Origin: Minisyncoccota bacterium
GTDB taxonomy: Bacteria; Patescibacteriota; Minisyncoccia; Phycocordibacterales; GWA1-40-21
NCBI GenBank assembly: GCA_041664585.1
Contig: JBAYKL010000001.1
Span: 123,384 to 187,383, forward strand
Reading direction: 5' to 3'
Length of the DNA: 64,000 nt
The notes under the pieces: model-generated
Told to the model about the DNA's origin: nothing
Database searches by the model: none
The model's input: the letters and a program-made list of their open reading frames with translations, nothing else
Shown: positions 4,903-35,991 of the stretch, one piece after another
How the letters are laid out: each line of letters opens with the position of its first letter
Numbering within the stretch: the stretch's first letter is position 1
Program-made: the position numbers and the translations under genes

Positions 4903-5967
4903 CTAGCAGATTATTCCACCACCAAGACAAACTTCCCCATCGTAAACCACTGCGGACTGACCCGAAGAAATAGCTTTCTGCGGACTAGTGAAATGTAATT
5001 CTATACAATTACCTACTTTTTTTATTTCACATTCTTCTAAAGGCTGTCTGTAGCGAATCCTTGCAGAGTATCTTTTATTTAAATCTGGCATCTCATCTAA
5101 CGTCCAACTCATATTCTTTAGCTTTACTATTTTTGATTCACTTTCAATTATCTTAGCTGAATCTTGAGATACGGTAATTGTATTTTTTTCTATATCTTTA
5201 GAGATAATATAATATCTGGAATCATTAGGAGTTTTTTCTGTAATCTTGAAACCATGTCTCTGACCGATAGTAAGAAAAAGTACTCCATCGTGAACCCCGA
5301 TCTCCTCTCCTCTTTCGTTTAAAACTCTTCCCGGAATTTCTTTTATATAGTGAGTTAGAAATTCTTTCATATCAAATTTACCAAGGAAACAAACTCCCTG
5401 ACTATCCTTTTTTACAGCAGTAGAAAGTCCTAATCTCTTCGCGATCTTTCTTACTTCTGGTTTTTCTATGTCACCAATTGGAAAAAGTGTTTTACTAAGT
5501 TGTTTTTGTGTAAGAGTCCAAAGAAAATATGTCTGATCTTTGTTTGTGTCTTTCCCTGCAAGCATTTTATTTCCTCCGACTCTTGCATAATGCCCCGTAG
5601 CAACAAAATCTGCACCTTGCTCCATTGCCCAATTAAAGAAACCGCCAAACTTCACGTACTTATTACACATTACATCTGGATTTGGAGTTCTGCCAAGCTT
5701 ATATTCATCTATCATGTAGTCAGCTACATCTTTTTTATATTCTTTTTCTAAATCAAGAGTAAAAAATGGAATATTTAATTTAGCACAAATGCGCATAGCA
5801 TCTAACCTATCTTCTCTCCAAGTACATTTTACAAAGTCTGGTTGCCAAACTTTTATAAAAACACCAGTTACATCATAACCTTCTTTTTGAAGTAGTGCAG
5901 CAGAAACAGAGCTATCAACTCCGCCAGACATACCAACAAAAACTTTTTTCTGCTGTTTTCTCAACAT
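4903..5967 (-). CDS. mnmA: tRNA-specific 2-thiouridylase MnmA.
   Basis: VGMSGGVDSSVSAALL PP-loop and the MnmA C-terminal domains. Confidence 0.9.
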   Translation of the reverse strand: MLRKQQKKVFVGMSGGVDSSVSAALLQKEGYDVTGVFIKVWQPDFVKCTWREDRLDAMRICAKLNIPFFTLDLEKEYKKDVADYMIDEYKLGRTPNPDVMCNKYVKFGGFFNWAMEQGADFVATGHYARVGGNKMLAGKDTNKDQTYFLWTLTQKQLSKTLFPIGDIEKPEVRKIAKRLGLSTAVKKDSQGVCFLGKFDMKEFLTHYIKEIPGRVLNERGEEIGVHDGVLFLTIGQRHGFKITEKTPNDSRYYIISKDIEKNTITVSQDSAKIIESESKIVKLKNMSWTLDEMPDLNKRYSARIRYRQPLEECEIKKVGNCIELHFTSPQKAISSGQSAVVYDGEVCLGGGIIC

Positions 5968-5968
5968 A

Positions 5969-5997
5969 TTGACTTTATACCATATAAAATGTATGAT
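5969..5997 (+). promoter_or_regulatory. Sigma70-like promoter (TTGACT, 17-nt spacer, TATGAT), copy 1 of a repeated promoter module.
   Basis: ACATATTGACTTTATACCATATAAAATGTATGAT. It is nearly identical to the module at 6499-6527. Confidence 0.5.
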
Positions 5998-6042
5998 TTC
6001 AATCGAATTTGTTGTTTCAAGTTACATAAATAGGAGGTTCGT

Positions 6043-6451
6043 AGTGTCAGTAAAGATTGGTCAGGAGTTTAAAAGACCGGGGCGTTGTGATTTGGTCGTT
6101 TGTGGTATTTCCCCAGATGGAAAAATACAAACATACCAAAAAATCAAAATTCCAGGTTGGAAAGTTAAACAAGCGTTTGAAAAGAAGATCAGGATTGTAC
6201 CAGGGACAATTTTGGATTTACCGAACAAACAAAAAAGAGAGGTGCTGGGTCACTGTGGTACCGATTGGTACATGAAGATTCCTGGAGAAATTTTGGAATT
6301 TACCGAGGAGCAACTTATCGATTTCGATGCAGGTGCAGAAATAGAAAAAGAGCTCAAAAGAATCGTCGGCAATTCACCAAACAACATACATGTGAGTAGG
6401 CCCAAAAGCATAAGATTTTCTCGTTGTAGGAAAGCTTTTGTGGAAAACTAA
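6043..6451 (+). CDS. Hypothetical protein (about 136 aa).
   Basis: GTG start 5 nt after a perfect AGGAGG RBS. The track ORF from 5969 begins inside the promoter, so the shorter start is preferred. Confidence 0.4.
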
Positions 6452-6461
6452 ATCACAGCAG

Positions 6462-6496
6462 CCGCCCGAGCATTTTTGCAAAGGCGGTTTTTTATT
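6462..6496 (+). terminator. Intrinsic terminator.
   Basis: CCGCC...GGCGG hairpin plus a T-run, immediately followed by the next TTGACT promoter. Confidence 0.45.
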
Positions 6497-6498
6497 TA

Positions 6499-6527
6499 TT
6501 GACTTTGTATCATATACAATGTATTGT
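6499..6527 (+). promoter_or_regulatory. Sigma70-like promoter, copy 2 of the repeated module.
   Basis: TTGACTTTGTATCATATACAATGTATTGT, about 85% identical to 5969-5997 over some 30 nt. Confidence 0.5.
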
Positions 6528-6573
6528 TGAAAATGAAATTGTTGGCTCAAAAACATAAACGAAAGGAAAGAAA

Positions 6574-6876
6574 ATGAGCTTTTTAAATATACTTCCATGG
6601 GTACTTCTGACTATAGTTTCCATAATCGGATTCTACAAAAACCAACCCCGTCGACTTTCAGAACTCAGTGGAAAAGAGAGGTTTGTTGTCGCCAGCTATG
6701 AGAGCAAAAAATATTTCTATGTGATTGTCCATAGGAGTTTAAAAATCGTCGTGTACAAACACAAAATAAATAAAATCGCCAGTAAAGAACAACCCTTTTT
6801 ACAAGAAATGAAAGAGGGGTTGTACAAATTTTATGATATTGGTGATGGAGAAATTATGGTAAACCTCATTGGTTAA
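6574..6876 (+). CDS. Hypothetical small membrane-anchored protein.
   Basis: N-terminal transmembrane segment (ILPWVLLTIVSIIGF). It has its own promoter and terminator. Confidence 0.4.
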   Translation: MSFLNILPWVLLTIVSIIGFYKNQPRRLSELSGKERFVVASYESKKYFYVIVHRSLKIVVYKHKINKIASKEQPFLQEMKEGLYKFYDIGDGEIMVNLIG

Positions 6877-6884
6877 TCACTTTA

Positions 6885-6910
6885 AACCGCTCTTAAAGGC
6901 GGTTTTTATT
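6885..6910. terminator. Intrinsic terminator, bidirectional.
   Basis: AACCGC-loop-GCGGTT followed by TTTTTATTTT. It abuts the ychF stop. Confidence 0.5.
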
Positions 6911-15027: not shown

Positions 15028-15033
15028 TAAAAT

Positions 15034-15066
15034 AAGCTGGTCGTTTACACGACCAGCTTATTTTTA
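15034..15066. terminator. Bidirectional intrinsic terminator.
   Basis: 11-bp stem AAGCTGGTCGT/ACGACCAGCTT, loop TTAC, with A/T runs on both sides. Confidence 0.6.
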
Positions 15067-21174: not shown

Positions 21175-21276
21175 GGTTTTTAATAAATATTAAATTAATA
21201 ATACTCATATTATACTACTTCTAGCTAAAAAAGCATTTGATTAATATAATAAATATGCTAACATATTGACTGTATT

Positions 21277-21352
21277 GGGCCCTTAGCTCATCTGGTAGAG
21301 CACCTCATTTGCAATGAGGGGGTGGCAGGTTCGAGTCCTGTAGGGTCCACCA
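21277..21352 (+). tRNA. tRNA-Ala (anticodon TGC).
   Basis: Cloverleaf folds by hand: acceptor GGGCCCU/AGGGUCC with the G3:U70 alanine identity pair, anticodon loop TTTGCAA, T-loop GGTTCGAGTCC, encoded CCA. Confidence 0.9.
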
Positions 21353-21366
21353 TTGTATAAAAACTT

Positions 21367-21390
21367 AAACCGCTTTATGCGGTTTTTTGT
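21367..21390 (+). terminator. Intrinsic terminator after tRNA-Ala.
   Basis: AACCGC-TTTAT-GCGGTT followed by TTTTTTGTTTTT. Confidence 0.6.
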
Positions 21391-21550
21391 TTTTACAGTG
21401 GTGGGCCCTAAGTAAGCAATGAGTATTGCTTACGTCAGGACTCGAACAGCGGAACCAAATTTTTTCAGTAGAAAAAATAGGTGAGCTGGTGCCCAGACAA
21501 AATTGAGCGACGGCGAAATTTTAGTCGGGGGAGAGATTTCTGTAGTCCAC

Positions 21551-21578
21551 TTGACAAATATATCTGAGGTTCTATAAT
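21551..21578 (+). promoter_or_regulatory. Sigma70 promoter TTGACA...TATAAT with a shared upstream box TGTAGNNCAC.
   Basis: TGTAGTCCACTTGACA, spacer, TATAAT. Paralogous to 21972-22000. Confidence 0.5.
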
Positions 21579-21647
21579 TAATACAGATTTTTATAATAAT
21601 ATATGCATTCAAAACCTTAGAAAGATGTACATTAAAAGGAGTTAATC

Positions 21648-21851
21648 ATGAAATCATACCTTGTACTATATGGCATATTTTGTCGTACTAGCTTTGATAC
21701 TGGTCATAATACTTATCAGAGAACTATTACATGTGAGCCCAGTGATTTACCAACAGAAGTTGCAGAAACAAAGACATCGCTTGAAAATAGACGTCCGCCA
21801 GAAGCTGAGGCTTGGGAAATTACCGTAACTCAGATTGTTCCTTTAAGTTGA
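21648..21851 (+). CDS. Small hypothetical protein (67 aa).
   Basis: AAAGGAG RBS 6 nt upstream of the ATG, its own consensus promoter, and an 8-bp perfect-stem terminator (21869-21900). Confidence 0.35.
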   Translation: MKSYLVLYGIFCRTSFDTGHNTYQRTITCEPSDLPTEVAETKTSLENRRPPEAEAWEITVTQIVPLS

Positions 21852-21868
21852 GGACGCCAGGAACCACT

Positions 21869-21900
21869 ATGCACATTCTTTTTGGGATGTGCATTTTATT
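21869..21900 (+). terminator. Intrinsic terminator.
   Basis: ATGCACAT...ATGTGCAT stem followed by a T-run. Confidence 0.5.
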
Positions 21901-21971
21901 TCCCTAAAATATCCCTCAAAATATTTTAACTCCCTTACTATTTGGTTCGTAAATAAAATGTTGTAGCTCAC

Positions 21972-22000
21972 TTGACAGATAACACTCTATATGCTATACT
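21972..22000 (+). promoter_or_regulatory. Sigma70 promoter TTGACA, 17-nt spacer, TATACT, with the TGTAGNNCAC upstream box.
   Basis: TGTAGCTCACTTGACA, spacer, TATACT. Confidence 0.5.
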
Positions 22001-22081
22001 CTGTAGAGATTTATAAAGTGGGTAAATTACCCAAAACCGTGGTGAGAGCCACAATGTTCATCAAAAGAAAGGGAAACGAAA

Positions 22082-22258
22082 ATGGCAATAAAGATATTTG
22101 CTGAATGTATAGATAGCGAAGAAGAAATTGAAGTCCTTAATAATAAAGTAAATGCTTTTATTCAGGACAAACCGCAAGCCGAAATTCAATGGCTTCAAAG
22201 CTCCGCTGGATCAAGCCATGAAAAAACAACCGTCCTTACATCAATCATCAGATACTAA
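22082..22258 (+). CDS. Cse60-like small protein (58 aa).
   Basis: MAIKIFAECIDSEEEIEVLNNKVNAFIQDKPQAEIQWLQS...TSIIRY follows the Cse60 pattern (I..F.E..E..LE..VN.F....I.I.Y......Y). Below the ORF-track cutoff. Confidence 0.4.
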   Translation: MAIKIFAECIDSEEEIEVLNNKVNAFIQDKPQAEIQWLQSSAGSSHEKTTVLTSIIRY

Positions 22259-22290
22259 TAAGCGATAAAAACGCTTTGAAAGTATCCAGA

Positions 22291-22317
22291 CCGCCCTGCA
22301 ACTTGTAGGGCGGTTTT
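22291..22317. terminator. Bidirectional intrinsic terminator.
   Basis: CCGCCCT-loop-AGGGCGG followed by a T-run. It abuts the ddl stop on the other strand. Confidence 0.55.
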
Positions 22318-23296: not shown

Positions 23297-24499
23297 TTAT
23301 ATCATTTTGTTTCTCAAACTTCTATGATATTTGATAGCAAATCTGTGAGCTTCATTGTTTGCCAATAATATTTCATTTGAATATCTAGATGATATTGTTT
23401 TATCACCCATCACAGCCTTAGGTTTATGATATTCATCCTTAAGAACCGAAACCACTGGAATATTTAAGCCAAATTTTTCTAAAACCTTTCTGGCGATGTT
23501 TATTTGTGCTTTCCCTCCATCAACAACAACCACTTGAGGAAAAGACCATTCTTCATGAGTAAACCTTCTTTCTAATACCTCTTTCAAAGCCGCAACATCG
23601 TTTTGTTTACTATTATTAATCTTAAACTTTCTATATTCTTTTTTATTTGGTTCGCCATCCTCCAACACCACCATTACACCGACATTTGCAGACCCACTAA
23701 TGTGAGCGATATCATATGCCTCAATTCTTATTGGATCCTCAATCTTTTTGTATTCTTCCTTAACCAAAGCAACATCTTGAATGTGATTAAGAGCAAAAAT
23801 TGTTTTCTTAATCTTATTAGCTTCTTCAAATCTTTGTTCCATAGCAAAAAAATTCATTTCCTTTTCTAGATTCTTTATTATCTGTGTTTTTTCGCCTTCA
23901 AAAAACAATTTGATGTTTTTAATTATCTTTGAATATTCATTTTTTGAAATTAAACCAGCACAAACACCAGGACAAAGACCTATTTGATAGTTAAAGCATG
24001 GTCTATCTTGTCCTATCTTACACCTATCTCTAAAAGGAAATATTTTACGTATTATTTTTAAAGCTTCTTTTAATTGTGTAGCATTAGGAAAAGGACCAAA
24101 TTTTTCTTTAATTAATAAAGAAAAATTGCTTTCTAAATTTCTTCCTCTCTCTACCAAAACTCTTGGAAACTCTTCTTTTGTGATAACAACATAATTAAAA
24201 CTTTTATTATCTTTTTCTTTCGTGTTGTATTTTGGTTGATACTTTTTTATCAAATTCGCTTCTAGAATAAGCGCCTCCAAAACGGAATCTGTTTTTTCAA
24301 AAGTTACCTTATTTGTCTTAAAAACCATATCAACCAACAGTGGACCCCTTGTGGCAATTAAATCATTAGAAAAATAACTTCTTACCCTATCCTTGAGAGA
24401 GGTCGCCTTACCAATATAAAGGACTTGCTTACCTTTCATAAAAAAGTAAACTCCTGGGGAATCTGGTAATTTTGCTCTATTAAAAACTTGACTATTCAT
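23297..24499 (-). CDS. uvrC: Excinuclease ABC subunit C, short form without the C-terminal HhH domain.
   Basis: GIY-YIG motif (GVYFFMKG...LYIGKA), UvrBC-interaction region, and the RNase H-like endonuclease region with DGGKAQ. Ends with no (HhH)2. Start at MNSQVF (24499). Confidence 0.8.
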   Translation of the reverse strand: MNSQVFNRAKLPDSPGVYFFMKGKQVLYIGKATSLKDRVRSYFSNDLIATRGPLLVDMVFKTNKVTFEKTDSVLEALILEANLIKKYQPKYNTKEKDNKSFNYVVITKEEFPRVLVERGRNLESNFSLLIKEKFGPFPNATQLKEALKIIRKIFPFRDRCKIGQDRPCFNYQIGLCPGVCAGLISKNEYSKIIKNIKLFFEGEKTQIIKNLEKEMNFFAMEQRFEEANKIKKTIFALNHIQDVALVKEEYKKIEDPIRIEAYDIAHISGSANVGVMVVLEDGEPNKKEYRKFKINNSKQNDVAALKEVLERRFTHEEWSFPQVVVVDGGKAQINIARKVLEKFGLNIPVVSVLKDEYHKPKAVMGDKTISSRYSNEILLANNEAHRFAIKYHRSLRNKMI

Positions 24500-24562
24500 A
24501 TAATGTAATATAATATAATTTTCAGATTTATACAAATTGTACACTAACAACGGGAGGAAAAG

Positions 24563-24970
24563 ATGTTTGGAGAAATCGTGTTTGTAAATAATCGGGCAGC
24601 AATTTTCGTACTTTGCTTCATCGTACCGGTCTTCTTAATTTTTCTGTTCAAATGTAACCGAACAGAAAAAAGAAACGAGAAATTAAAAAAGGATGCCGAA
24701 GATGCAAGAGGTAAAGCGGCCGTAGCAGAAGAAGTTATCCAACACGGCGGTGAATATGAATTCAAAGAAGTTTTTACAGAATACGGTTCAATGTTTTTTG
24801 TAGTAGTCATCAAAGACTTGCGAAAAATAAAATTTTGCTACATAGCGAATACAAAAAAGTGGAGAACGGGTGATACCTACGGATTAAAACCCGAAAAGGG
24901 AGTCATCTACAGAGCCGATATTCAAGACAATGTAATCCATCTAAATAGGAAAGAAGGGAGCAGACATTGA
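24563..24970 (+). CDS. Hypothetical membrane-anchored protein.
   Basis: GGGAGG RBS. One transmembrane helix, then a charged helix, then a globular part. Confidence 0.4.
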   Translation: MFGEIVFVNNRAAIFVLCFIVPVFLIFLFKCNRTEKRNEKLKKDAEDARGKAAVAEEVIQHGGEYEFKEVFTEYGSMFFVVVIKDLRKIKFCYIANTKKWRTGDTYGLKPEKGVIYRADIQDNVIHLNRKEGSRH

Positions 24971-25278
24971 ACAAACGTCTAAAAAAGAAACGTTCCAAAC
25001 CACCACCTACAGAAACACAAGGAATAGTTGTGGTACCAGCAGAAGATTTTCTAGAAAGCGGAGTAGACTCTTATTTCGTAAGAATGAAATCTGAAAATGA
25101 AAACGACTGCATCTACACTATTCGTAAGGATGGTGAAAAAGAAGGGACTCTTTGTCGAATTGACAGGATTGTAAATTGGTCTATCGACAAGCTCACAGGA
25201 GTACCTCCAAAAACAGGCGTATATAAAGTCCGGAAAAATGGGAGAAGGATAACACTCTCAAAATTCAGACTGCGATAA
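24967..25278 (+). CDS. Hypothetical protein, apparent TTG start overlapping the upstream stop (ATTGA).
   Basis: The ORF is in frame from the TTG at 24967 and is translationally coupled. No recognisable domain. Confidence 0.35.
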   Translation: MNKRLKKKRSKPPPTETQGIVVVPAEDFLESGVDSYFVRMKSENENDCIYTIRKDGEKEGTLCRIDRIVNWSIDKLTGVPPKTGVYKVRKNGRRITLSKFRLR

Positions 25279-25283
25279 ACGCA

Positions 25284-25316
25284 AAAACCGCTCATCGAAC
25301 GAGCGGTTTTTTATTT
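25284..25316. terminator. Bidirectional intrinsic terminator.
   Basis: AAACCGCTC-ATCGAAC-GAGCGGTTT followed by TTTTATTTT. It overlaps the uvrA stop. Confidence 0.6.
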
Positions 25317-29789: not shown

Positions 29790-31856
29790 CTATTTCTTTT
29801 TAACAACCTTCTTTTTGTTATTTTCTATCTTTTCCTTCAAAAGCAAAATCTCATCTCTTAATATAGAAGCTGTCTCGAAATCCAATATCTTCACGGCAGC
29901 ATTCATTTGAATTTCTTTTTGTTTTATTATTTTCGCTGGGCTCTTTATCATCATAGCTTCATCTATTCTAAGTAGTTCAGCTACAGCTTTATCATGATCG
30001 CTTCTCATACTATCTGTAATATCGTGTATTTTCTTTATGATGGTTTTCGGAGTAATGCCATGTTTTGTATTATATGCGATTTGTTTGTCTCTCCTCTTGT
30101 TTGTCTCTGCTATCGCTCTTTCTATTGAGCCAGTGGTCTTGTCAGCATACAAAACAACCCTACCAAGCACATTTCTGGCAGCACGGCCGATGGTTTGGAT
30201 AAGAGAAGTATCTGAACGCAAGAAACCTTCTTTGTCAGCATCTAAGATACCAATAAATTCTACTTCGGGTAAGTCTAGTCCCTCTCTAAGTAAGTTTACC
30301 CCAACCAAACAATCAAACTTCCCTCTTCTAAAGTTTGTAAGAATATCTATTCTATCTATTGTCTTAATATCGCTGTGTAGATATTCTGCCTTCACTCCTT
30401 TTTCTTTTAAATATTCACTCAAATCTTCCGCCATCTTTTTTGTAAGTGTCGTGGCAATTACTCTTCCACCGTTTTTTACAACTTTTAATGTTTCTTCTAT
30501 AAAATCAAAAATCTGAGATTTGTTATTTTTTGTTTCTGTAATTGGTTTAATATCTACAATAGGGTCTATAAGACCAGTAGGACGAATTACTTGTTCTACT
30601 ATTTGTTCTGACTTTTCTTTTTCATATGCTCCCGGAGTGGCCGTGGTATAAATAGTCTGCCCAACTCTTTCTTCAAATTCTTTGAAATTAAGTGGGCGAT
30701 TATCTCTTGCAGATGGAAGTCTAAAACCAAAATCAATTAAAGTCTTTTTTCTTGAAGCATCTCCAGCATACATACCACCTATTTGAGGTACAGTAATATG
30801 AGATTCATCTATAATGGTAAGGAAATCTGGGGAACCATCTGCTTTCTTTGGAAAATATGAAATTAGAGTATCAGGAGCATCTCCAGATTTTCTACCAGAA
30901 AAATGTCTTGAGTAGTTCTCAATACCATTACAATAACCGACTTCTTTTATAAGAGCCAAATCGTAACTTGTCCTTCTCTTCAATCTTTCCGCCTCGAGAT
31001 TGTGTCCTTCTTTTTTGAGCTGTTCTAACCTTTCTTCAAGCTCTCTTTTTATACTCTTAAAAGCACTCTCTTGCTGTGCTTTATTCGTAATAAAATGTTT
31101 CGCAGGAAAAATAAAAATCTGATCCAAATCACTTTCTATAATATTTCTTGATACGGAATCAATTTTTAATATTTCAGATATCTTATCATCTTCAATATTA
31201 ATCCTTATTATTATTTTCTCACTCACTGGCATTACTTCTATGGAGTTTCCGATAACCCTAAACTGACCAGATGCTAAATCTGCATTTGTTCTTTCAAAAT
31301 GAATATTTACAAGTTTCTTAATTATATTTTGTCTCTCTGCAGAATCTCCTTTCTTGATTTGTAAGTTTACACTCATGTATTCTTCTGGACTTCCAAGACC
31401 GTATATACAAGAAACTGATGCAACAATAATTACATCTTTCCTTGTAAGAAGTGCTTGGGTAGAAGCATGGCGAAGTCTATCTATTTCTTCGTTAATCATC
31501 GCCTCCTTCTCTATATATGTATCTGTAACGGGCATATATGCCTCTGGTTGATAGTAATCATAGTAAGATACAAAATAGTGTACGGCATTGTCTGGAAAGA
31601 ATTCCCTATACTCTTGGGCAAGCTGAGCTGCAAGGGTCTTATTGTGGGCTATCACAAGAGTTGGTTTTTGTACTTTTTCAATAATATTTGCAACAGTAAA
31701 AGTTTTACCAGAACCAGTAACACCAAAAAGGGTTTGTTTATTAAAACCCTTGTTTATACCTTCCATAAGCTCTTTTATAGCCTTTGGTTGATCTCCTGCT
31801 GGAACATATTCTGCTTTTATCTTGAATTTATCCTTCATTGACTTAATTTGTTTCAT
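29790..31856 (-). CDS. uvrB: Excinuclease ABC subunit B.
   Basis: GVTGSGKTFT Walker A, helicase motifs, beta-hairpin region and C-terminal UVR domain. Start at MKQIKS (31856). Confidence 0.9.
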   Translation of the reverse strand: MKQIKSMKDKFKIKAEYVPAGDQPKAIKELMEGINKGFNKQTLFGVTGSGKTFTVANIIEKVQKPTLVIAHNKTLAAQLAQEYREFFPDNAVHYFVSYYDYYQPEAYMPVTDTYIEKEAMINEEIDRLRHASTQALLTRKDVIIVASVSCIYGLGSPEEYMSVNLQIKKGDSAERQNIIKKLVNIHFERTNADLASGQFRVIGNSIEVMPVSEKIIIRINIEDDKISEILKIDSVSRNIIESDLDQIFIFPAKHFITNKAQQESAFKSIKRELEERLEQLKKEGHNLEAERLKRRTSYDLALIKEVGYCNGIENYSRHFSGRKSGDAPDTLISYFPKKADGSPDFLTIIDESHITVPQIGGMYAGDASRKKTLIDFGFRLPSARDNRPLNFKEFEERVGQTIYTTATPGAYEKEKSEQIVEQVIRPTGLIDPIVDIKPITETKNNKSQIFDFIEETLKVVKNGGRVIATTLTKKMAEDLSEYLKEKGVKAEYLHSDIKTIDRIDILTNFRRGKFDCLVGVNLLREGLDLPEVEFIGILDADKEGFLRSDTSLIQTIGRAARNVLGRVVLYADKTTGSIERAIAETNKRRDKQIAYNTKHGITPKTIIKKIHDITDSMRSDHDKAVAELLRIDEAMMIKSPAKIIKQKEIQMNAAVKILDFETASILRDEILLLKEKIENNKKKVVKKK

Positions 31857-31866
31857 TATGTAGTCT
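31838..31866 (+). promoter_or_regulatory. TTGACTTAATTTG promoter module (copy within the uvrB 5' end).
   Basis: ATTGACTTAATTTG is identical to 33087-33100. It sits upstream of the 31909 gene. Confidence 0.4.
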
Positions 31867-31908
31867 TTTAAACTGGAAATCAAGTACAAACAGAAAGGGT
31901 CACAAATC

Positions 31909-32325
31909 ATGACAAAAAATACAAACTCTAATTTCCAACCAGGCGTTTACTATGCTGTATTGGATAAAAGATGGAGTAATGTTGTTCAAACTCCCGGTAG
32001 AAGAAAAGGGCGAGCTGTATATTTGGTAATTTCTTATGAGATTAAGGCTACCGGAGACGCAAACCTAAGCTCACACAGAAGGACTTCCACGTTAAAAAGA
32101 TTGAGAGGATACAAATACCTTTCGTCTGAATCGGCTGGGGCAAATGAAAAAGACTTTGTCCAAAGCATGATCGCTGGAAACACAAACTCTATACACATAC
32201 GCCTAGAGAAAAATAGGGTTTTTAAAGACCAAGAAGAGTTGTTCAAAGTATTAAACGACAGCTTAGCTTGGTTAAAAAAACACCGTGTAGATATTCCACA
32301 GGAAGTACTACAGAAGCTCGAGTAG
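31909..32325 (+). CDS. Hypothetical protein (138 aa).
   Basis: AAAGGG RBS, then its own terminator. No recognisable domain. Confidence 0.45.
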   Translation: MTKNTNSNFQPGVYYAVLDKRWSNVVQTPGRRKGRAVYLVISYEIKATGDANLSSHRRTSTLKRLRGYKYLSSESAGANEKDFVQSMIAGNTNSIHIRLEKNRVFKDQEELFKVLNDSLAWLKKHRVDIPQEVLQKLE

Positions 32326-32343
32326 TACAAGTGGGAAAATCAC

Positions 32344-32369
32344 AAGCCGCATCTAACGCGGCTTTTTTA
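32344..32369 (+). terminator. Intrinsic terminator (repeat copy A).
   Basis: AAGCCGC-ATCTAAC-GCGGCTT followed by TTTTTT. Near-identical to 33373-33398. Confidence 0.6.
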
Positions 32370-32375
32370 TTAATA

Positions 32376-32404
32376 TTGACTTCACCTATTTGGTAATGTA
32401 ATAT
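32376..32404 (+). promoter_or_regulatory. Sigma70 promoter TTGACT, 17-nt spacer, TAATAT.
   Basis: Immediately 3' of the terminator: TTTTTTATTAATATTGACTT. Confidence 0.5.
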
Positions 32405-32449
32405 CTGTTTTGAGAAAAAGTTCATTCAATTTTGGAAAGGAAATGTTTA

Positions 32450-32644
32450 ATGAATAGTTTTGTAAAAAAGACGATTATCATACTGGTTGTCCATGGTGGC
32501 AATCATAAATGTGATTTTTTTAAAGATATCACGAGCCAACAAATCAATGAGGAAAAAATAAGAAAGGCTCGTGCATCACAAAGATTCAGCGGACTCAAAG
32601 GTATCAAACCCAAACCCATTCATTGGAGAAAAATTGGGAGATAA
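32450..32644 (+). CDS. Small hypothetical protein (about 64 aa).
   Basis: GGAAAGGAAA RBS. MNSFVKKTIIILVVHGGNHKCD... The start within the track ORF (32432) is chosen for RBS spacing. Confidence 0.3.
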   Translation: MNSFVKKTIIILVVHGGNHKCDFFKDITSQQINEEKIRKARASQRFSGLKGIKPKPIHWRKIGR

Positions 32645-32655
32645 AAGGAGACAAA

Positions 32656-33045
32656 ATGGACCAGTCAGAAGAAATGTTACAAAAGACAAAGGAAAGACAA
32701 GAAAAAATTGAAGCACAGCTTCGAAAACTTTCTTGGGGAGAAACTGAAGAAGAAAAAGATATGTTTGTAAAAACTATTCATCAATTCTTCTCTCCCAAAA
32801 TGGTTCCGGAAGGCTTAAGCGACGGAGAAGCTAGATTGATTTATATCATTGCTTCCACTTTCGCAAATGCCAGAGTAAACATGGGACCACTCCCAATGGA
32901 ATGGGAAGTGGAAAAAATGACCAGAGATTCATTCCAGAAAGGTTTAATAAGTTTTTTAAATGTGGATCTTTCGAGATCAAACGGAGAAATTGATTCGGAA
33001 GGAAACGTTTCAATTTTTAGTTTTTCACCACCAAAAACATTTTAA
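32656..33045 (+). CDS. Hypothetical protein (129 aa).
   Basis: AAAAGGAG RBS 6 nt before ATG 32656, within track ORF 32623-33045. Confidence 0.4.
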   Translation: MDQSEEMLQKTKERQEKIEAQLRKLSWGETEEEKDMFVKTIHQFFSPKMVPEGLSDGEARLIYIIASTFANARVNMGPLPMEWEVEKMTRDSFQKGLISFLNVDLSRSNGEIDSEGNVSIFSFSPPKTF

Positions 33046-33051
33046 TGTCTT

Positions 33052-33081
33052 GCCGCAACATCAATTGTTGCGGTTTTTTTA
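33052..33081 (+). terminator. Intrinsic terminator.
   Basis: GCCGCAACA-TCAAT-TGTTGCGGT followed by TTTTTTT. Confidence 0.6.
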
Positions 33082-33087
33082 TTTATA

Positions 33088-33116
33088 TTGACTTAATTTG
33101 CGACAGATGTACTATT
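33088..33116 (+). promoter_or_regulatory. TTGACTTAATTTG promoter module.
   Basis: TTTTTTTATTTATATTGACTTAATTTG directly after the terminator. Confidence 0.5.
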
Positions 33117-33155
33117 TATTGTAATAAAACAGTTCTTTGGAAAGGAGAACCACTT

Positions 33156-33356
33156 ATGAGAAGATTCGGAATTATGAGCGGTGGACGATCACACATTAAA
33201 GGTGGACCTGAGGGTGAAGACGGTCCGTACAAAAAAGACGGAAGACATGATGATTTCTCAGACGGACCAATTCCACGAGAAGGTAGACGTCCTACAAACT
33301 CAAACGTAGAGAAAATCAACGGGGTTCCTTTTGCAAAAAGAGGTAAAGGTTTATGA
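33156..33356 (+). CDS. Small Gly/Pro/charged-rich protein, possibly a KGG-repeat (YciG-like) stress protein.
   Basis: AAAGGAG RBS. MRRFGIMSGGRSHIKGGPEGEDGPYKKDGRHDDFSDGPIPREGRR... The track ORF from 33045 spans the terminator and promoter, so the short start is preferred. Confidence 0.4.
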   Translation: MRRFGIMSGGRSHIKGGPEGEDGPYKKDGRHDDFSDGPIPREGRRPTNSNVEKINGVPFAKRGKGL

Positions 33357-33372
33357 CAATCCAATACCTTTT

Positions 33373-33396
33373 AAGCCGCATCCTAATGCGGCTTTT

Positions 33397-33398
<2 letters not shown>
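33373..33398. terminator. Intrinsic terminator (repeat copy B), bidirectional with the tgt stop.
   Basis: AAGCCGC-ATCCTAAT-GCGGCTT followed by TTTTTT. Confidence 0.6.
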
Positions 33399-35135
<1,737 letters not shown>

Positions 35136-35228: not shown

Positions 35229-35948
35229 ATGATATTTAAAAAAATATTTTCAAACAAAAAAGATACCAAAAATGGAAACCGTATAGATGCTGGAACTGAA
35301 CAAATGAAAGAAGTTGATAAAATTGTTAAGAAAAGATCACAAGTCGCCAATAGTGAATTCGAGAAAGGATACAATTTAATTAAGAAATACCCAAGATCCG
35401 TAAGCATCTTAGGTTCTGCTAGATTCAAAGAAGACAATATTTACTATCAAAAAGCACGATCTCTATCATCAAAAATAGTAAAAGAGCTCGGCTATGCAGT
35501 TGTTACTGGTGGTGGTCCTGGAATAATGGAAGGAGCAAACAGAGGTGCATTCGAAGCTGGCGGAACATCTCTTGGTTTCAATATCATTTTACCCCACGAA
35601 CAATCAATAAATAAATATGTCACCGATTCTGTAGACTTCGAGTATTTTTTTAGTAGAAAGACTCTTCTTTTCTTTGGAAGTGAAAGCTACGTTTATTTCC
35701 CAGGAGGATTCGGAACACTTGATGAATTTTTTGAAATGATTACCTTAATACAAACAGGTAAAATTAATCCGGCACCAATAATATTAGTAGGAAGAGAATT
35801 TTGGGAACCAGTATTAGAACTCATGAAAAACCTGCTTCTTGAAAAATTTAATACAATAAATATAGATGACTTAAACATCTATAAAATAGTAGATGATGAA
35901 AATGAGATTGTACAAATAATAAAGAATGCTCCGTTTAGACAAGAATAA
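35229..35948 (+). CDS. LOG-family protein (cytokinin riboside 5'-monophosphate phosphoribohydrolase-like, TIGR00730).
   Basis: VVTGGGPGIMEG and PGGFGTLDE motifs. Confidence 0.8.
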   Translation: MIFKKIFSNKKDTKNGNRIDAGTEQMKEVDKIVKKRSQVANSEFEKGYNLIKKYPRSVSILGSARFKEDNIYYQKARSLSSKIVKELGYAVVTGGGPGIMEGANRGAFEAGGTSLGFNIILPHEQSINKYVTDSVDFEYFFSRKTLLFFGSESYVYFPGGFGTLDEFFEMITLIQTGKINPAPIILVGREFWEPVLELMKNLLLEKFNTINIDDLNIYKIVDDENEIVQIIKNAPFRQE

Positions 35949-35957
35949 CAAAACAAA

Positions 35958-35985
35958 AAACACCCTGAAAGGGTGTTTTTTGTTT
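35958..35985. terminator. Bidirectional intrinsic terminator.
   Basis: ACACCCT-GAA-AGGGTGT followed by TTTTTTG. Confidence 0.6.
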
Positions 35986-35991
35986 TGTTAT

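Follow-up and report, generated by a model that had tools for sequence, protein, structure and literature searches.

The gap between uvrB and tgt in this genome raises the question of how a series of small plus-strand genes with look-alike promoters and terminators came to lie between two conserved minus-strand genes. An earlier note on the window (the whole 64,000-nucleotide stretch of DNA that was analysed) had read the block as three single-gene cassettes with reused regulatory modules. Our ORF analysis finds four plus-strand ORFs (orf1 to orf4) organised as three transcription units, whose promoters and terminators are predictions called by consensus match only. The block is bordered by the DNA-repair gene uvrB (29790..31838, minus strand; Pfam UvrB domains) and by the tRNA-modification gene tgt, encoding queuine tRNA-ribosyltransferase (33397..34614, minus strand; a 405-aa gene call with Pfam PF01702 at E 1.6e-138), which is convergent with the island. 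The start of uvrB is likely the ATG at 31838 (MKDKFKIK...) and not those at 31856 or 31910, since the relatives begin with MNKFKIK and the ATG at 31856 falls within a minus-strand -10 element. Because four independent assemblies carry the identical locus, an assembly artefact is excluded.

Two of the three genes originally proposed stand as described: orf1 (31909..32325; 138 aa, pI 9.95) and orf4 (33156..33356; 66 aa, pI 10.1, rich in Gly, Pro and charged residues). The third, at 32450-33045, splits in two, as a stop codon lies at 32642-32644 and orf3 begins at 32656 in another frame, with its own AAAGGAG upstream. The first gene of this pair, orf2 (32450..32644), encodes 64 aa with a pI of 10.8, and orf3 (32656..33045) encodes 129 aa with a pI of 4.9 and is the founder of a helical family. 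None of the four has a match in Pfam, PHROG, PADLOC or NCBIfam; orf1 also lacks a PDB match, and PDB and viral searches with orf4 were empty. Among 5.8e9 proteins searched, orf1 has a single homologue (85% identity, in the relative L085) and orf4, an orphan, matches only itself. The orf3 family is tiny (12 matches among 1.84 billion proteins); it is marked by the motif FFSPxxIPDGLTxxEARLIYIIA, and of the six members whose context could be retrieved, five are located within the uvrB-tgt interval or next to it. The KGG/YciG-like identity once suggested for the Gly/Pro-rich orf4 product was ruled out, with no Pfam match even at E<=1.

We compared the locus with that of six close relatives, in which UvrB is 97-99% identical at the amino-acid level. 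Gap content across relatives ranges from 0 to 5 genes: orf2+orf3 in L086/87 and L088-90, divergent orf3 alleles in L091 and L093, orf1 with a 189-aa multi-TM gene in L085, and five genes, one of them a two-domain orf3-family member, in L105. In distant Parcubacteria uvrB follows immediately on tgt, both being on one strand (L008, L014, L016, L019), and larger tgt-uvrB gaps occur in L009, L010, L012 and L013. The order of events at the gap follows from the phylogeny, ((window, L085), L086, (L088/90, L093), L095). The ancestral state, as seen in the more distant Parcubacteria, is fkbp>tgt>uvrB on one strand and almost gapless, and the opposite-strand operon orf2-orf3 became resident in the gap within this clade. 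Homologues of orf2 are found at the equivalent position in L086 (51%), L088 (75%) and L091 (68%). The middle unit is thus a conserved bicistronic operon and the ancestral occupant of the gap in the clade, not a recent cassette, which overturns the reading as three single-gene cassettes.

The operon was originally read, it appears, from the predicted promoter P1 (TTGACT-17-TAGTCT, 31838..31866, plus strand), the orthologue of the orf2-3 promoter in relatives, standing back to back with the uvrB promoter and overlapping the uvrB start codon. A consensus scan places the putative uvrB promoter at 31855..31883 on the minus strand (TTGATT-17-CATAAT), so that its -10 hexamer (31855-60) directly abuts that of P1 (31861-66) in a predicted pair of overlapping, back-to-back divergent promoters. 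Both -10 hexamers are kept in L086, L088, L091 and L093. Bidirectional or overlapping divergent promoters, such as symmetric -10 promoters, have been described for bacteria; the present pair resembles them in its abutting -10 elements and in being kept in relatives, but its hexamers, predicted from consensus only, are adjacent and not overlapping.

Two later changes separate the window from this resident state. A 535-bp piece (RBS, orf1, T1, P2) entered the orf2-orf3 5′UTR in the common ancestor of the window and L085. This orf1 cassette (31886..32420, plus strand), which also includes part of the 5′UTR, is present in L085 and has blastn breakpoints against L086-L090 at 31884-31888 and 32416-32418; it is bordered by AAG microhomology, and its left end lies within a 5′UTR. 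The GC3 of orf1 (0.37) is atypical for the genome. Through this insertion orf1 would have captured P1, the resident island promoter, and the incoming P2 (predicted; TTGACT-17-TAATAT, 32376..32404, plus strand) would have taken over orf2-orf3. In L085, a membrane-protein gene stands in place of the operon. The second change is a 317-bp unit following the orf3 terminator (P3, orf4, T3; 33088..33404, plus strand), found in this species only: homology with L086-L090 skips from 33087 to 33387. At either edge stands a copy of the terminator tail, the 13-nt direct repeat TTTTTTATTTATA (33075-33087 and 33392-33404; repeat family D1). The direction of the orf4 event, a gain or else several precise deletions between 13-19-nt repeats, is assigned by parsimony over five lineages. 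From one near-identical genome to the next, orf1 and orf4 vary in presence independently of each other, in agreement with the accessory, modular character first ascribed to the block. Furthermore, sister strains carry other alleles in place of orf3 or of orf2+orf3, the replaced stretch being sharply delimited by the promoter and the terminator. The swapped orf3 alleles share 34-41% amino-acid identity inside 90-98% identical flanks; over exactly the stretch that runs from the promoter, or from the junction of orf2 with orf3, to the tgt stop, identity is down to 35-65%, compared with 90-98% outside it.

The regulatory ends of the units were then the remaining part of the question. P2 and P3 (predicted; TTGACT-16-TACTAT, 33088..33115, plus strand) score 9/12 against consensus, and the -10 of P1 is weak. 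Each unit does have a promoter-like site of its own. P1, P2 and P3 have ATTGACTT and an ATG-TA -10 context in common. A terminator for each unit is borne out: the folding energies of the three hairpins lie between -11 and -14 kcal/mol (z -4.5 to -5.6), and U6-7 follows them on the plus strand only. These are the intrinsic terminator T1 (AAGCCGC-ATCTAAC-GCGGCTT then six T; 32344..32371, -11.1 kcal/mol), the orf2-orf3 terminator T2 (GCCGCAACA-TCAAT-TGTTGCGGT then seven T; 33052..33081, -14.4 kcal/mol), which is kept in L086, L088 and L090, and T3 (AAGCCGCAT-CCTA-ATGCGGCTT then six T; about 33373..33401, -13.3 kcal/mol), whose T-tract shares sequence with the stop codon of tgt.

T1 and T3 are near-identical, as had been noticed, matching at 27 of 29 positions (blastn-short E 0.005), and they form the most similar pair among 11 plus-strand hairpins compared (0.82 versus a median of 0.63). 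In L085 the T1 orthologue forms a 9-bp stem without mismatch, and one loop base sets it apart from T3. Among all related loci the T1/T3 hairpin is found only at the orf1 and orf4 cassettes; 241 million metagenome records, when scanned for it, gave six matches, all unrelated. The identical 14-mer pair was also recovered: ATTGACTTAATTTG occurs exactly twice, at 31837, abutting the true uvrB start codon, and at 33087, in P3; among the versions of P1, only the variant specific to the window and L085 has it. The P1 and P3 spacers agree at 9/12 positions against a mean of 3.9, an extra identity that amounts to only 8 nt past the -35 hexamer and is borderline by itself; a repeated 14-mer somewhere within 64 kb of AT-rich DNA is likewise unremarkable by itself. 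The terminator-promoter junction TTTTTTATTNATATTGACTT recurs exactly at 32363 and 33075, but the further copy reported at 6489 fits only with a 2-nt gap. Within the window, ATATTGACT(T) is a generic -35 context and GCGGYTTTTT(T)ATTT a generic terminator tail; the same promoter and terminator shapes recur there in no fewer than three further islands of small ORFs and serve a tRNA-Ala gene and islands beside mnmA, uvrC and ddl. Promoter-like sites in the region number 22 against a shuffled expectation of 26, that is, they show no excess. Judged on sequence, most of the cloned-module likeness is the genome's stereotyped promoter and terminator consensus; the T1/T3 hairpin and the P1/P3 14-mer surpass that consensus and indicate local copying. 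Identity above chance, and reuse by copying, would therefore apply to these two pairs and not to the remainder. The ends of the orf4 unit match the lineage-specific P1 variant and T1.

We consider it distinctly unlikely that a set of genes for stress or host association is co-regulated through common modules, as the earlier note had proposed. The features common to the three promoters and the near-identity of T1 and T3 would suit such a dedicated programme, but the same shapes serve unrelated units of the window, the tRNA-Ala gene included, the hexamers are plain sigma-70-like with no further common operator-like motif, co-regulation is not conferred by terminators, and the three units differ in evolutionary age. 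Very improbable, too, is an integron- or MITE-like system in which the hairpins or junction repeats are recombination sites of an unrecognised enzyme. Like integron arrays, the block lines up short units of one gene each in tandem, and a sequence with a hairpin recurs at the unit ends; one hairpin and one 25-nt junction repeat are common to the ends of both variable cassettes, and the 13-nt repeat bounds the orf4 unit. Unlike such arrays, it has no IntI, attC or attI: recombinase, transposase and integrase domains are absent within ±10 kb of the block, no attC sites lie at the block, and no terminal inverted repeats flank the cassettes. Moreover, the hairpins are 21-23 nt long with U-tracts, typical of ordinary intrinsic terminators and not of 55-140-nt attC sites, the units come with promoters of their own, no dispersal of the T1/T3 hairpin is seen, and the left end of the orf1 cassette shows AAG microhomology only. 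Tandem duplication of a whole promoter-gene-terminator unit, with a coding part that diverged past recognition, would explain why the orf4-unit ends resemble those of P1-orf1-T1, and the small proteins at the locus do evolve fast. It is nonetheless highly unlikely: orf1 and orf4 differ in length (138 versus 66 aa) and GC3 (0.37 versus 0.27) and retain no protein or DNA similarity, and since spacer and loop bases outside the consensus have remained identical, there would have been far too little time since the duplication to erase the coding sequence.

The nature of the genes themselves leaves two further readings. That some or all ORFs are spurious, and the interval a non-coding spacer, is barely credible, even if none has a known domain and orf4 lacks any homologue. 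The synteny comparison suggested for this point found tgt adjoining uvrB in distant relatives, but in close relatives homologous cassettes are present and evolve under purifying selection, so that at least orf1-3 are not spurious. From codon comparisons, orf1-3 are under purifying selection (dN/dS 0.16-0.45 overall; 0.25 for orf1, 0.16-0.45 for orf2 and 0.16-0.32 for orf3), with third-position changes in excess and a dS resembling that of the flanks. The AF2 model of orf3 is confident once 11 homologues are supplied (pLDDT 80.6). Finally, orf4 shows strong coding periodicity (GC by codon position 0.54/0.51/0.27, its GC3 equalling that of housekeeping genes), an AAAGGAG RBS 8 nt from the ATG, and its own predicted promoter and terminator. 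It is less far-fetched, although still unlikely, that orf2-orf3 is a toxin-antitoxin, defence or immunity-type pair in which diversifying selection drives allele turnover. A small basic and a small acidic protein encoded 11 nt apart, extremely divergent alleles within near-identical flanks, and a rare, lineage-restricted orf3 family all fit this idea. Against it stand the empty PADLOC, Pfam, PHROGs and NCBIfam searches, pairwise dN/dS values below 0.5, a strictly syntenic position inherited vertically across the clade and not patchily, and a fold search with the predicted orf3 structure that gave no match, known toxins and antitoxins included.

We regard it as probable that the uvrB-tgt gap in this Paceibacteria genus is a hot-spot of long standing, where genes are gained, lost or replaced by other alleles, and not a regulon built for a purpose or a cassette system of the site-specific kind. 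The closest likeness is to the minimal mobile elements (MMEs) of Neisseria (Saunders & Snyder 2002; Snyder et al. 2007; definition per PMC3082526). As in MMEs, two conserved genes flank the site, mobility genes are absent, and identity breaks sharply at the conserved flanks. In contrast to MMEs, the host is an uncultured member of the Paceibacteria (CPR), transformation and flank-mediated homologous recombination are only inferred, the cassettes are complete promoter-to-terminator units with regulatory ends partly copied from the resident unit, and one occupant, orf2-orf3, is kept across the clade. More generally, chromosomal hot-spots of horizontal transfer, or flexible islets between core genes, are an established pangenome concept. 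The locus shares with them repeated, independent gain, loss and replacement at one core-gene junction, but on a very small scale (0.3-0.5 kb single-gene units) and at a site with no tRNA, integrase or phage remnant.

Under this hot-spot explanation, two routes of exchange would operate, homologous recombination within the conserved flanks and recombination over short homologies where terminator tail and promoter head meet in a stereotyped junction (GCGGYTTTTTTATTWAT-ATTGACTT), and the regulatory ends of the orf4 unit would have been copied locally and not imported. One-way terminators would insulate each new gene and leave tgt>uvrB transcription unblocked; the units may lie antisense to the housekeeping genes because these terminators act in one direction only. 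The products would be fast-evolving accessory factors. That the orf3 family has stayed linked to uvrB/tgt could reflect a functional tie instead of a passive hot-spot. The locus presents an ordinary sort of genome variability, here in unusually clean form, in a tiny-genome Paceibacteria/CPR bacterium.

The DNA has a low GC content (33.7%), and its source is an uncultured bacterium of Candidatus Paceibacterota (Parcubacteria, CPR): the best relatives of its uvrB are in Parcubacteria MAGs, and NCBI product names are those of Paceibacterota hypothetical proteins. Two minus-strand genes, uvrB (29790-31838, identified with Pfam) and tgt (33397-34614, Pfam TGT, E 1.6e-138), enclose a group of plus-strand ORFs that the earlier note had read as three equivalent single-gene cassettes. 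We count four ORFs: orf1 (31909-32325, 138 aa), orf2 (32450-32644, 64 aa), orf3 (32656-33045, 129 aa) and orf4 (33156-33356, 66 aa). The supposed middle gene, 32450-33045, is split by a stop codon at 32642-32644, and orf3 lies in another frame with its own AAAGGAG ahead, which makes the middle unit a bicistronic operon. Its two ORFs, 11 nt apart, have the putative promoter P2 and the terminator hairpin T2 in common and no terminator between them, as in a compact small-protein operon. The 1.8-kb interval shows zero mismatch across four independent assemblies, so the locus is not an assembly artefact. Annotations of the uvrB start differ (longest ORF, 706 aa from 31910; ENA, 688 aa from 31856; JGI, 682 aa from 31838); the start at 31838 agrees best with the relatives (MNKFKIK) and with where the minus-strand -10 lies. 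Upstream of this gene (31836-31910), ATGAAACAAATTAAG resembles a degenerate second copy of the 5′ end of the ancestral uvrB (ATGAACAAATTCAAG).

Substitution rates show purifying selection on orf1, orf2 and orf3, relaxed with respect to the flanking genes: dN/dS is 0.25 for orf1, 0.16-0.45 for orf2 and 0.16-0.32 for orf3, against 0.02-0.07 for uvrB and tgt, with dS of the three ORFs comparable to that of the flanks. Among 5.8 billion proteins, the fourth, orf4, has no homolog but itself; the GC of its codon positions (0.54/0.51/0.27), with GC3 at housekeeping level, and its good RBS lead us to treat it as probably coding. The GC3 of orf1 (0.37) is atypical. Searches of orf1 to orf4 against Pfam, PHROGs, PADLOC and NCBIfam yielded nothing at or near threshold, and PDB sequence searches with orf1 and orf4 gave no match. 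The earlier note had suggested that one product was KGG-repeat/YciG-like; this identity is not supported for orf4, which has no Pfam family at E<=1 and no NCBIfam match. Rfam found no riboswitch or sRNA in the UTRs of the interval (E-value mode) and, across the whole window in gathering mode, only a tRNA-Ala at 21277.

The orf3 family is very small. A profile search of 1.84 billion representative proteins recovered only 12 proteins, which carry the motif FFSPxxIPDGLTxxEARLIYIIA; 11 members compared with Pfam gave no match. Six distant members were examined for their surroundings: P0007, P0008 and P0009 lie between uvrB and tgt, P0015 is one gene away from tgt, P0011 adjoins a HK/RR pair and P0012 is on a 679-bp contig without context. 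Among members with context, five of six are in or beside the uvrB-tgt interval. A speculative reading would make the family a hypervariable factor with a functional link to uvrB or tgt. In another protein from the search, P0010 (4201 aa), 14 separate stretches match orf3 profile positions 91-122; it may be a repeat protein with a short motif common to the C-terminal part of orf3.

Comparison with loci of related genomes (numbered L) reveals how variable the gap is. In more distant Parcubacteria the order is fkbp>tgt>uvrB on a single strand, with tgt and uvrB essentially adjacent in L008, L014, L016 and L019 and wider gaps in L009, L010, L012 and L013. In the close relatives, L085 to L093, uvrB is 97-99% and tgt 88-97% identical at the amino acid level, and order and orientation are unchanged. 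Between these flanks we find five contents, the first being the four ORFs of the window. In L085 there is orf1 (85%) together with an unrelated multi-TM gene of 189 aa on the minus strand, which gave nothing at or near threshold in the four family searches used for the ORFs. The third content is orf2 with orf3 (51% and 81% in L086 and L087; 75% and 79% in L088, L089 and L090), the fourth is orf2 (68%) with a divergent, 41%-identical orf3 (L091), and the fifth is a divergent orf2-like ORF with a 35%-identical orf3 (L093). The still more distant L105 (uvrB 73%, tgt 85%) holds five genes, one of them a two-domain member of the orf3 family.

The breakpoints, located by blastn and MAFFT, delimit two added pieces. 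The orf1 cassette (31886-32420) comprises the RBS, orf1, the hairpin T1, P2 and part of the 5′UTR, with AAG at its flanks; the orf4 cassette (33088-33404) comprises the putative promoter P3, orf4 and the hairpin T3, with the 13-nt direct repeat TTTTTTATTTATA at its bounds. The putative promoter ahead of orf1, P1, is orthologous to the orf2-orf3 promoter of the relatives (CAT-ATATTGACTT...TAGTAT), indicating that the orf1 piece was inserted in the 5′UTR of the resident operon. In this event orf1 would have captured P1, and P2, imported with orf1, would have taken over orf2-orf3. Neighbour-joining trees of uvrB and tgt both have the topology ((window, L085), L086, (L088/L090, L093), L095), from which it follows that orf2-orf3 is ancestral, that orf1 was gained in the ancestor of the window and L085, and that orf4 belongs to this species only. 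Furthermore, sliding-window identity between L088 and L091 or L093 drops from 90-98% to 35-65% exactly from the promoter (or the orf2/orf3 junction) to the tgt stop, a pattern of allelic cassette replacement.

Several further observations were made at these loci. Two strains, L091/L092 and L093/L094, occur together in both JGI samples 3300047491 and 3300042261; their uvrB/tgt flanks are ~87-100% identical in nucleotides, and their orf3 alleles differ, being P0007 and P0008 (identity to the window protein 41% and 35%). A gene lies between the orf3-family gene and tgt in L095 (772-1227, minus strand, 151 aa) and in L105 (6727-7161, minus strand, 144 aa); neither has a Pfam match, and the two may be homologous to each other and may represent another recurrent occupant of the gap. 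Downstream of uvrB in L088 (3061-5646) there are two tandem histidine-kinase genes, 88% and 56% identical to the single one of the window. The tgt-uvrB gap of ~460 bp in L010 (2932-3395), a more distant Paceibacterota MAG, contains no convincing ORF and may represent an RNA gene or an insert that has decayed.

The hairpins T1, T2 and T3 (32344, 33052 and 33373) fold with -11.1, -14.4 and -13.3 kcal/mol (z -4.5 to -5.6); on the plus strand U6-7 comes after each, and the minus strand has no U-tract. As stable GC-rich hairpins with a U-tract, they are predicted to be intrinsic (rho-independent) terminators. P1 is TTGACT-17-TAGTCT, with a weak -10 that is TAGTAT in relatives. P2 (TTGACT-17-TAATAT) and P3 (TTGACT-16-TACTAT) both match the consensus at 9/12 positions, and the number of such sites in this region is not above that in shuffles. 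A putative, conserved uvrB promoter (TTGATT-17-CATAAT) has its -10 immediately next to that of P1, so that competition between the two is possible.

The earlier note had described these regulatory pieces as cloned modules, and its observations were largely real apart from the mis-parsed middle unit. Indeed, the 14-mer ATTGACTTAATTTG is present exactly at 31837 and 33087, T1 and T3 match at 27/29 positions, and a 25-nt terminator-tail/promoter-head repeat, GCGGYTTTTTTATTWATATTGACTT, is found at 32358 and 33070, with a third, promoter-less copy at 33388. The junction said to recur at 6489 matches the pattern only if a 2-nt gap is allowed. Much of the likeness is the organism's general promoter and terminator grammar: ATATTGAC has six copies in the window, all on the plus strand; there are 12 TTGAC(A/T)-N16-18-TAnnnT sites; and the shape A-tract, CCGC...GCGG, T5-6, ATTT is common to at least 10 of the window's 22 hairpin terminators. 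Two likenesses rise above consensus. Of the 11 plus-strand hairpins compared, T1 and T3 are the most alike (0.82 vs a median of 0.63), and the spacers of P1 and P3 are identical at 9/12 positions vs a mean of 3.9; the sole closer promoter pair lies within another island, at 5969/6499. The T1 ortholog of L085 is one loop base off T3, and the TAATTTG of the P3 spacer is confined to the P1 variant of the window and L085, with TGAGACTG in its place in other relatives. Since P3 thus resembles this local variant and T3 resembles T1, which came with orf1, local copying is the most likely origin of the orf4 unit's regulatory ends. Near-copies of this kind might also arise by tandem duplication followed by divergence, a route made unlikely by the lack of anything in common between orf1 and orf4 when non-consensus regulatory bases are still identical. 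We found no additional cassette copies or paralogs elsewhere in the window, and no further copy of the T1/T3 hairpin in the window or the related loci; a dispersed repeat family was rejected, a metagenome-wide scan giving six matches, each in an unrelated organism and context.

At least three more islands of like build occur in the window. In island 2 (5965-6905, plus strand), the start CAT of mnmA (minus strand) abuts ATTGACTT (promoter-like site P5969); an ORF of ~135 aa with an AGGAGG RBS ends at 6451 and is followed by a terminator (6461-6488), and a second unit consists of the promoter-like site P6499, an ORF of 100 aa (6574-6876, plus strand) and a terminator at 6884, with ychF (minus strand) after it. 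P5969 and P6499 are the closest promoter pair in the window (35/50 overall, 10/12 in the spacer). The tRNA-Ala island (21266-22314, plus strand), ahead of ddl, has the tRNA-Ala unit and two units with ORFs of 67 aa (21648-21851) and 58 aa (22082-22258), both on the plus strand, each with its own TTGACA promoter and terminator and sharing the upstream string TGTAGYYCAC. The uvrC/uvrA island (24488-25311, plus strand) has uvrC (minus strand), with a TTGACT within its first codons, on one side and uvrA (minus strand) on the other; its plus-strand ORFs, of 135 aa (24563-24970) and ~82 aa, have no Pfam match and precede a terminator at 25283. All four islands occupy the plus strand and run antisense to the housekeeping genes of the window's first ~37 kb, most of which are on the minus strand. 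Where a divergent minus-strand gene marks the beginning of an island (mnmA, uvrC, uvrB), its start codon is abutted or overlapped by the first -35. Their small ORFs show no paralogy across islands. The idea that the uvrB-tgt block follows a dedicated expression programme is not supported, like promoters and terminators serving the other islands. Elsewhere in the window, long perfect-palindrome bidirectional terminators stand between convergent genes at 35946-35990 (stem up to 20 bp, T-tracts on both strands) and 15033-15060.

Among known systems, the interval comes closest in structure to the minimal mobile element, a Neisseria-type variable site (PMC3082526), with uvrB and tgt as conserved flanking genes across L085 to L093 and five contents of whole-gene cassettes varying between them. 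Such elements are exchanged by DNA uptake and homologous recombination in the flanks, with which the sharp identity breakpoints and the absence of mobility genes here are compatible: no called gene within 10 kb on either side has a recombinase or transposase Pfam domain, and no terminal inverted repeats surround the cassettes. On the other hand, an integron cassette array was rejected on every defining feature, there being no IntI (the tyrosine recombinase that goes with attI and Pc) among the called genes within these 10 kb, and no attC; attC sites are imperfect palindromes of 55-140 nt with R′′/R′ core sites, whereas the end hairpins here are 21-23 nt plus a U-tract, and integron cassettes are mostly promoterless, whereas the units here each have a TTGACT-type promoter. 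No relatives of orf1, of the orf3 family or of orf4 emerged from scans of viral contigs, and a phage origin is not supported. The compact two-gene organization of orf2 (64 aa) and orf3 (129 aa) would suit a type II toxin-antitoxin or immunity-like pair; neither partner shows homology to known toxin, antitoxin or defence families, and we consider this reading a live but unlikely rival.

Taken together, the comparisons indicate a hot-spot at which whole self-insulated transcription units, with terminators predicted to be orientation-specific, are gained, lost and exchanged while the flanks stay conserved. The earlier view of a modular, accessory block thus holds, with units gained, lost and replaced among close relatives and some regulatory DNA copied; its middle unit is the ancestral orf2-orf3 operon and not a cassette equivalent to the others. 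Exchange would proceed both by homologous recombination within uvrB and tgt and by short-homology events at the stereotyped terminator-tail/promoter-head junction, which would explain the junction repeats of 13-25 nt. Antisense placement of the units would be tolerated because the hairpins have no U-tract on the minus strand, so that read-through from tgt to uvrB is unblocked. A bolder reading is that streamlined CPR genomes gain genes in general as pre-insulated promoter-gene-terminator units, recombinase-free, the GCGGYTTTTTTATTWAT-ATTGACTT junction acting as a portable short homology that is duplicated during recombination. It would explain both the near-copy promoters and terminators of each island and the antisense position of all four islands relative to housekeeping operons; we regard it as a distinctly long shot.

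Patescibacteria have small genomes made up largely of genes without known function, and how they gain genes is poorly understood. At this locus a series of states is resolved to the base pair, from no insert to a resident operon, to one added unit and to two, in which orphan genes would arrive singly, each within a self-contained and insulated transcription unit, at one fixed junction of core genes. The locus displays allele replacement of a fast-evolving resident gene and, where the insertion occurred, what appear to be capture and replacement of promoters; it flags a very rare uncharacterised protein family in orf3, and it documents a stereotyped promoter and terminator grammar that can help the annotation of small genes in MAGs of CPR bacteria. 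Current views are not overturned: the locus is a new, cleanly resolved case of known genome plasticity, and extends the picture of hot-spots and minimal mobile elements to a CPR lineage.
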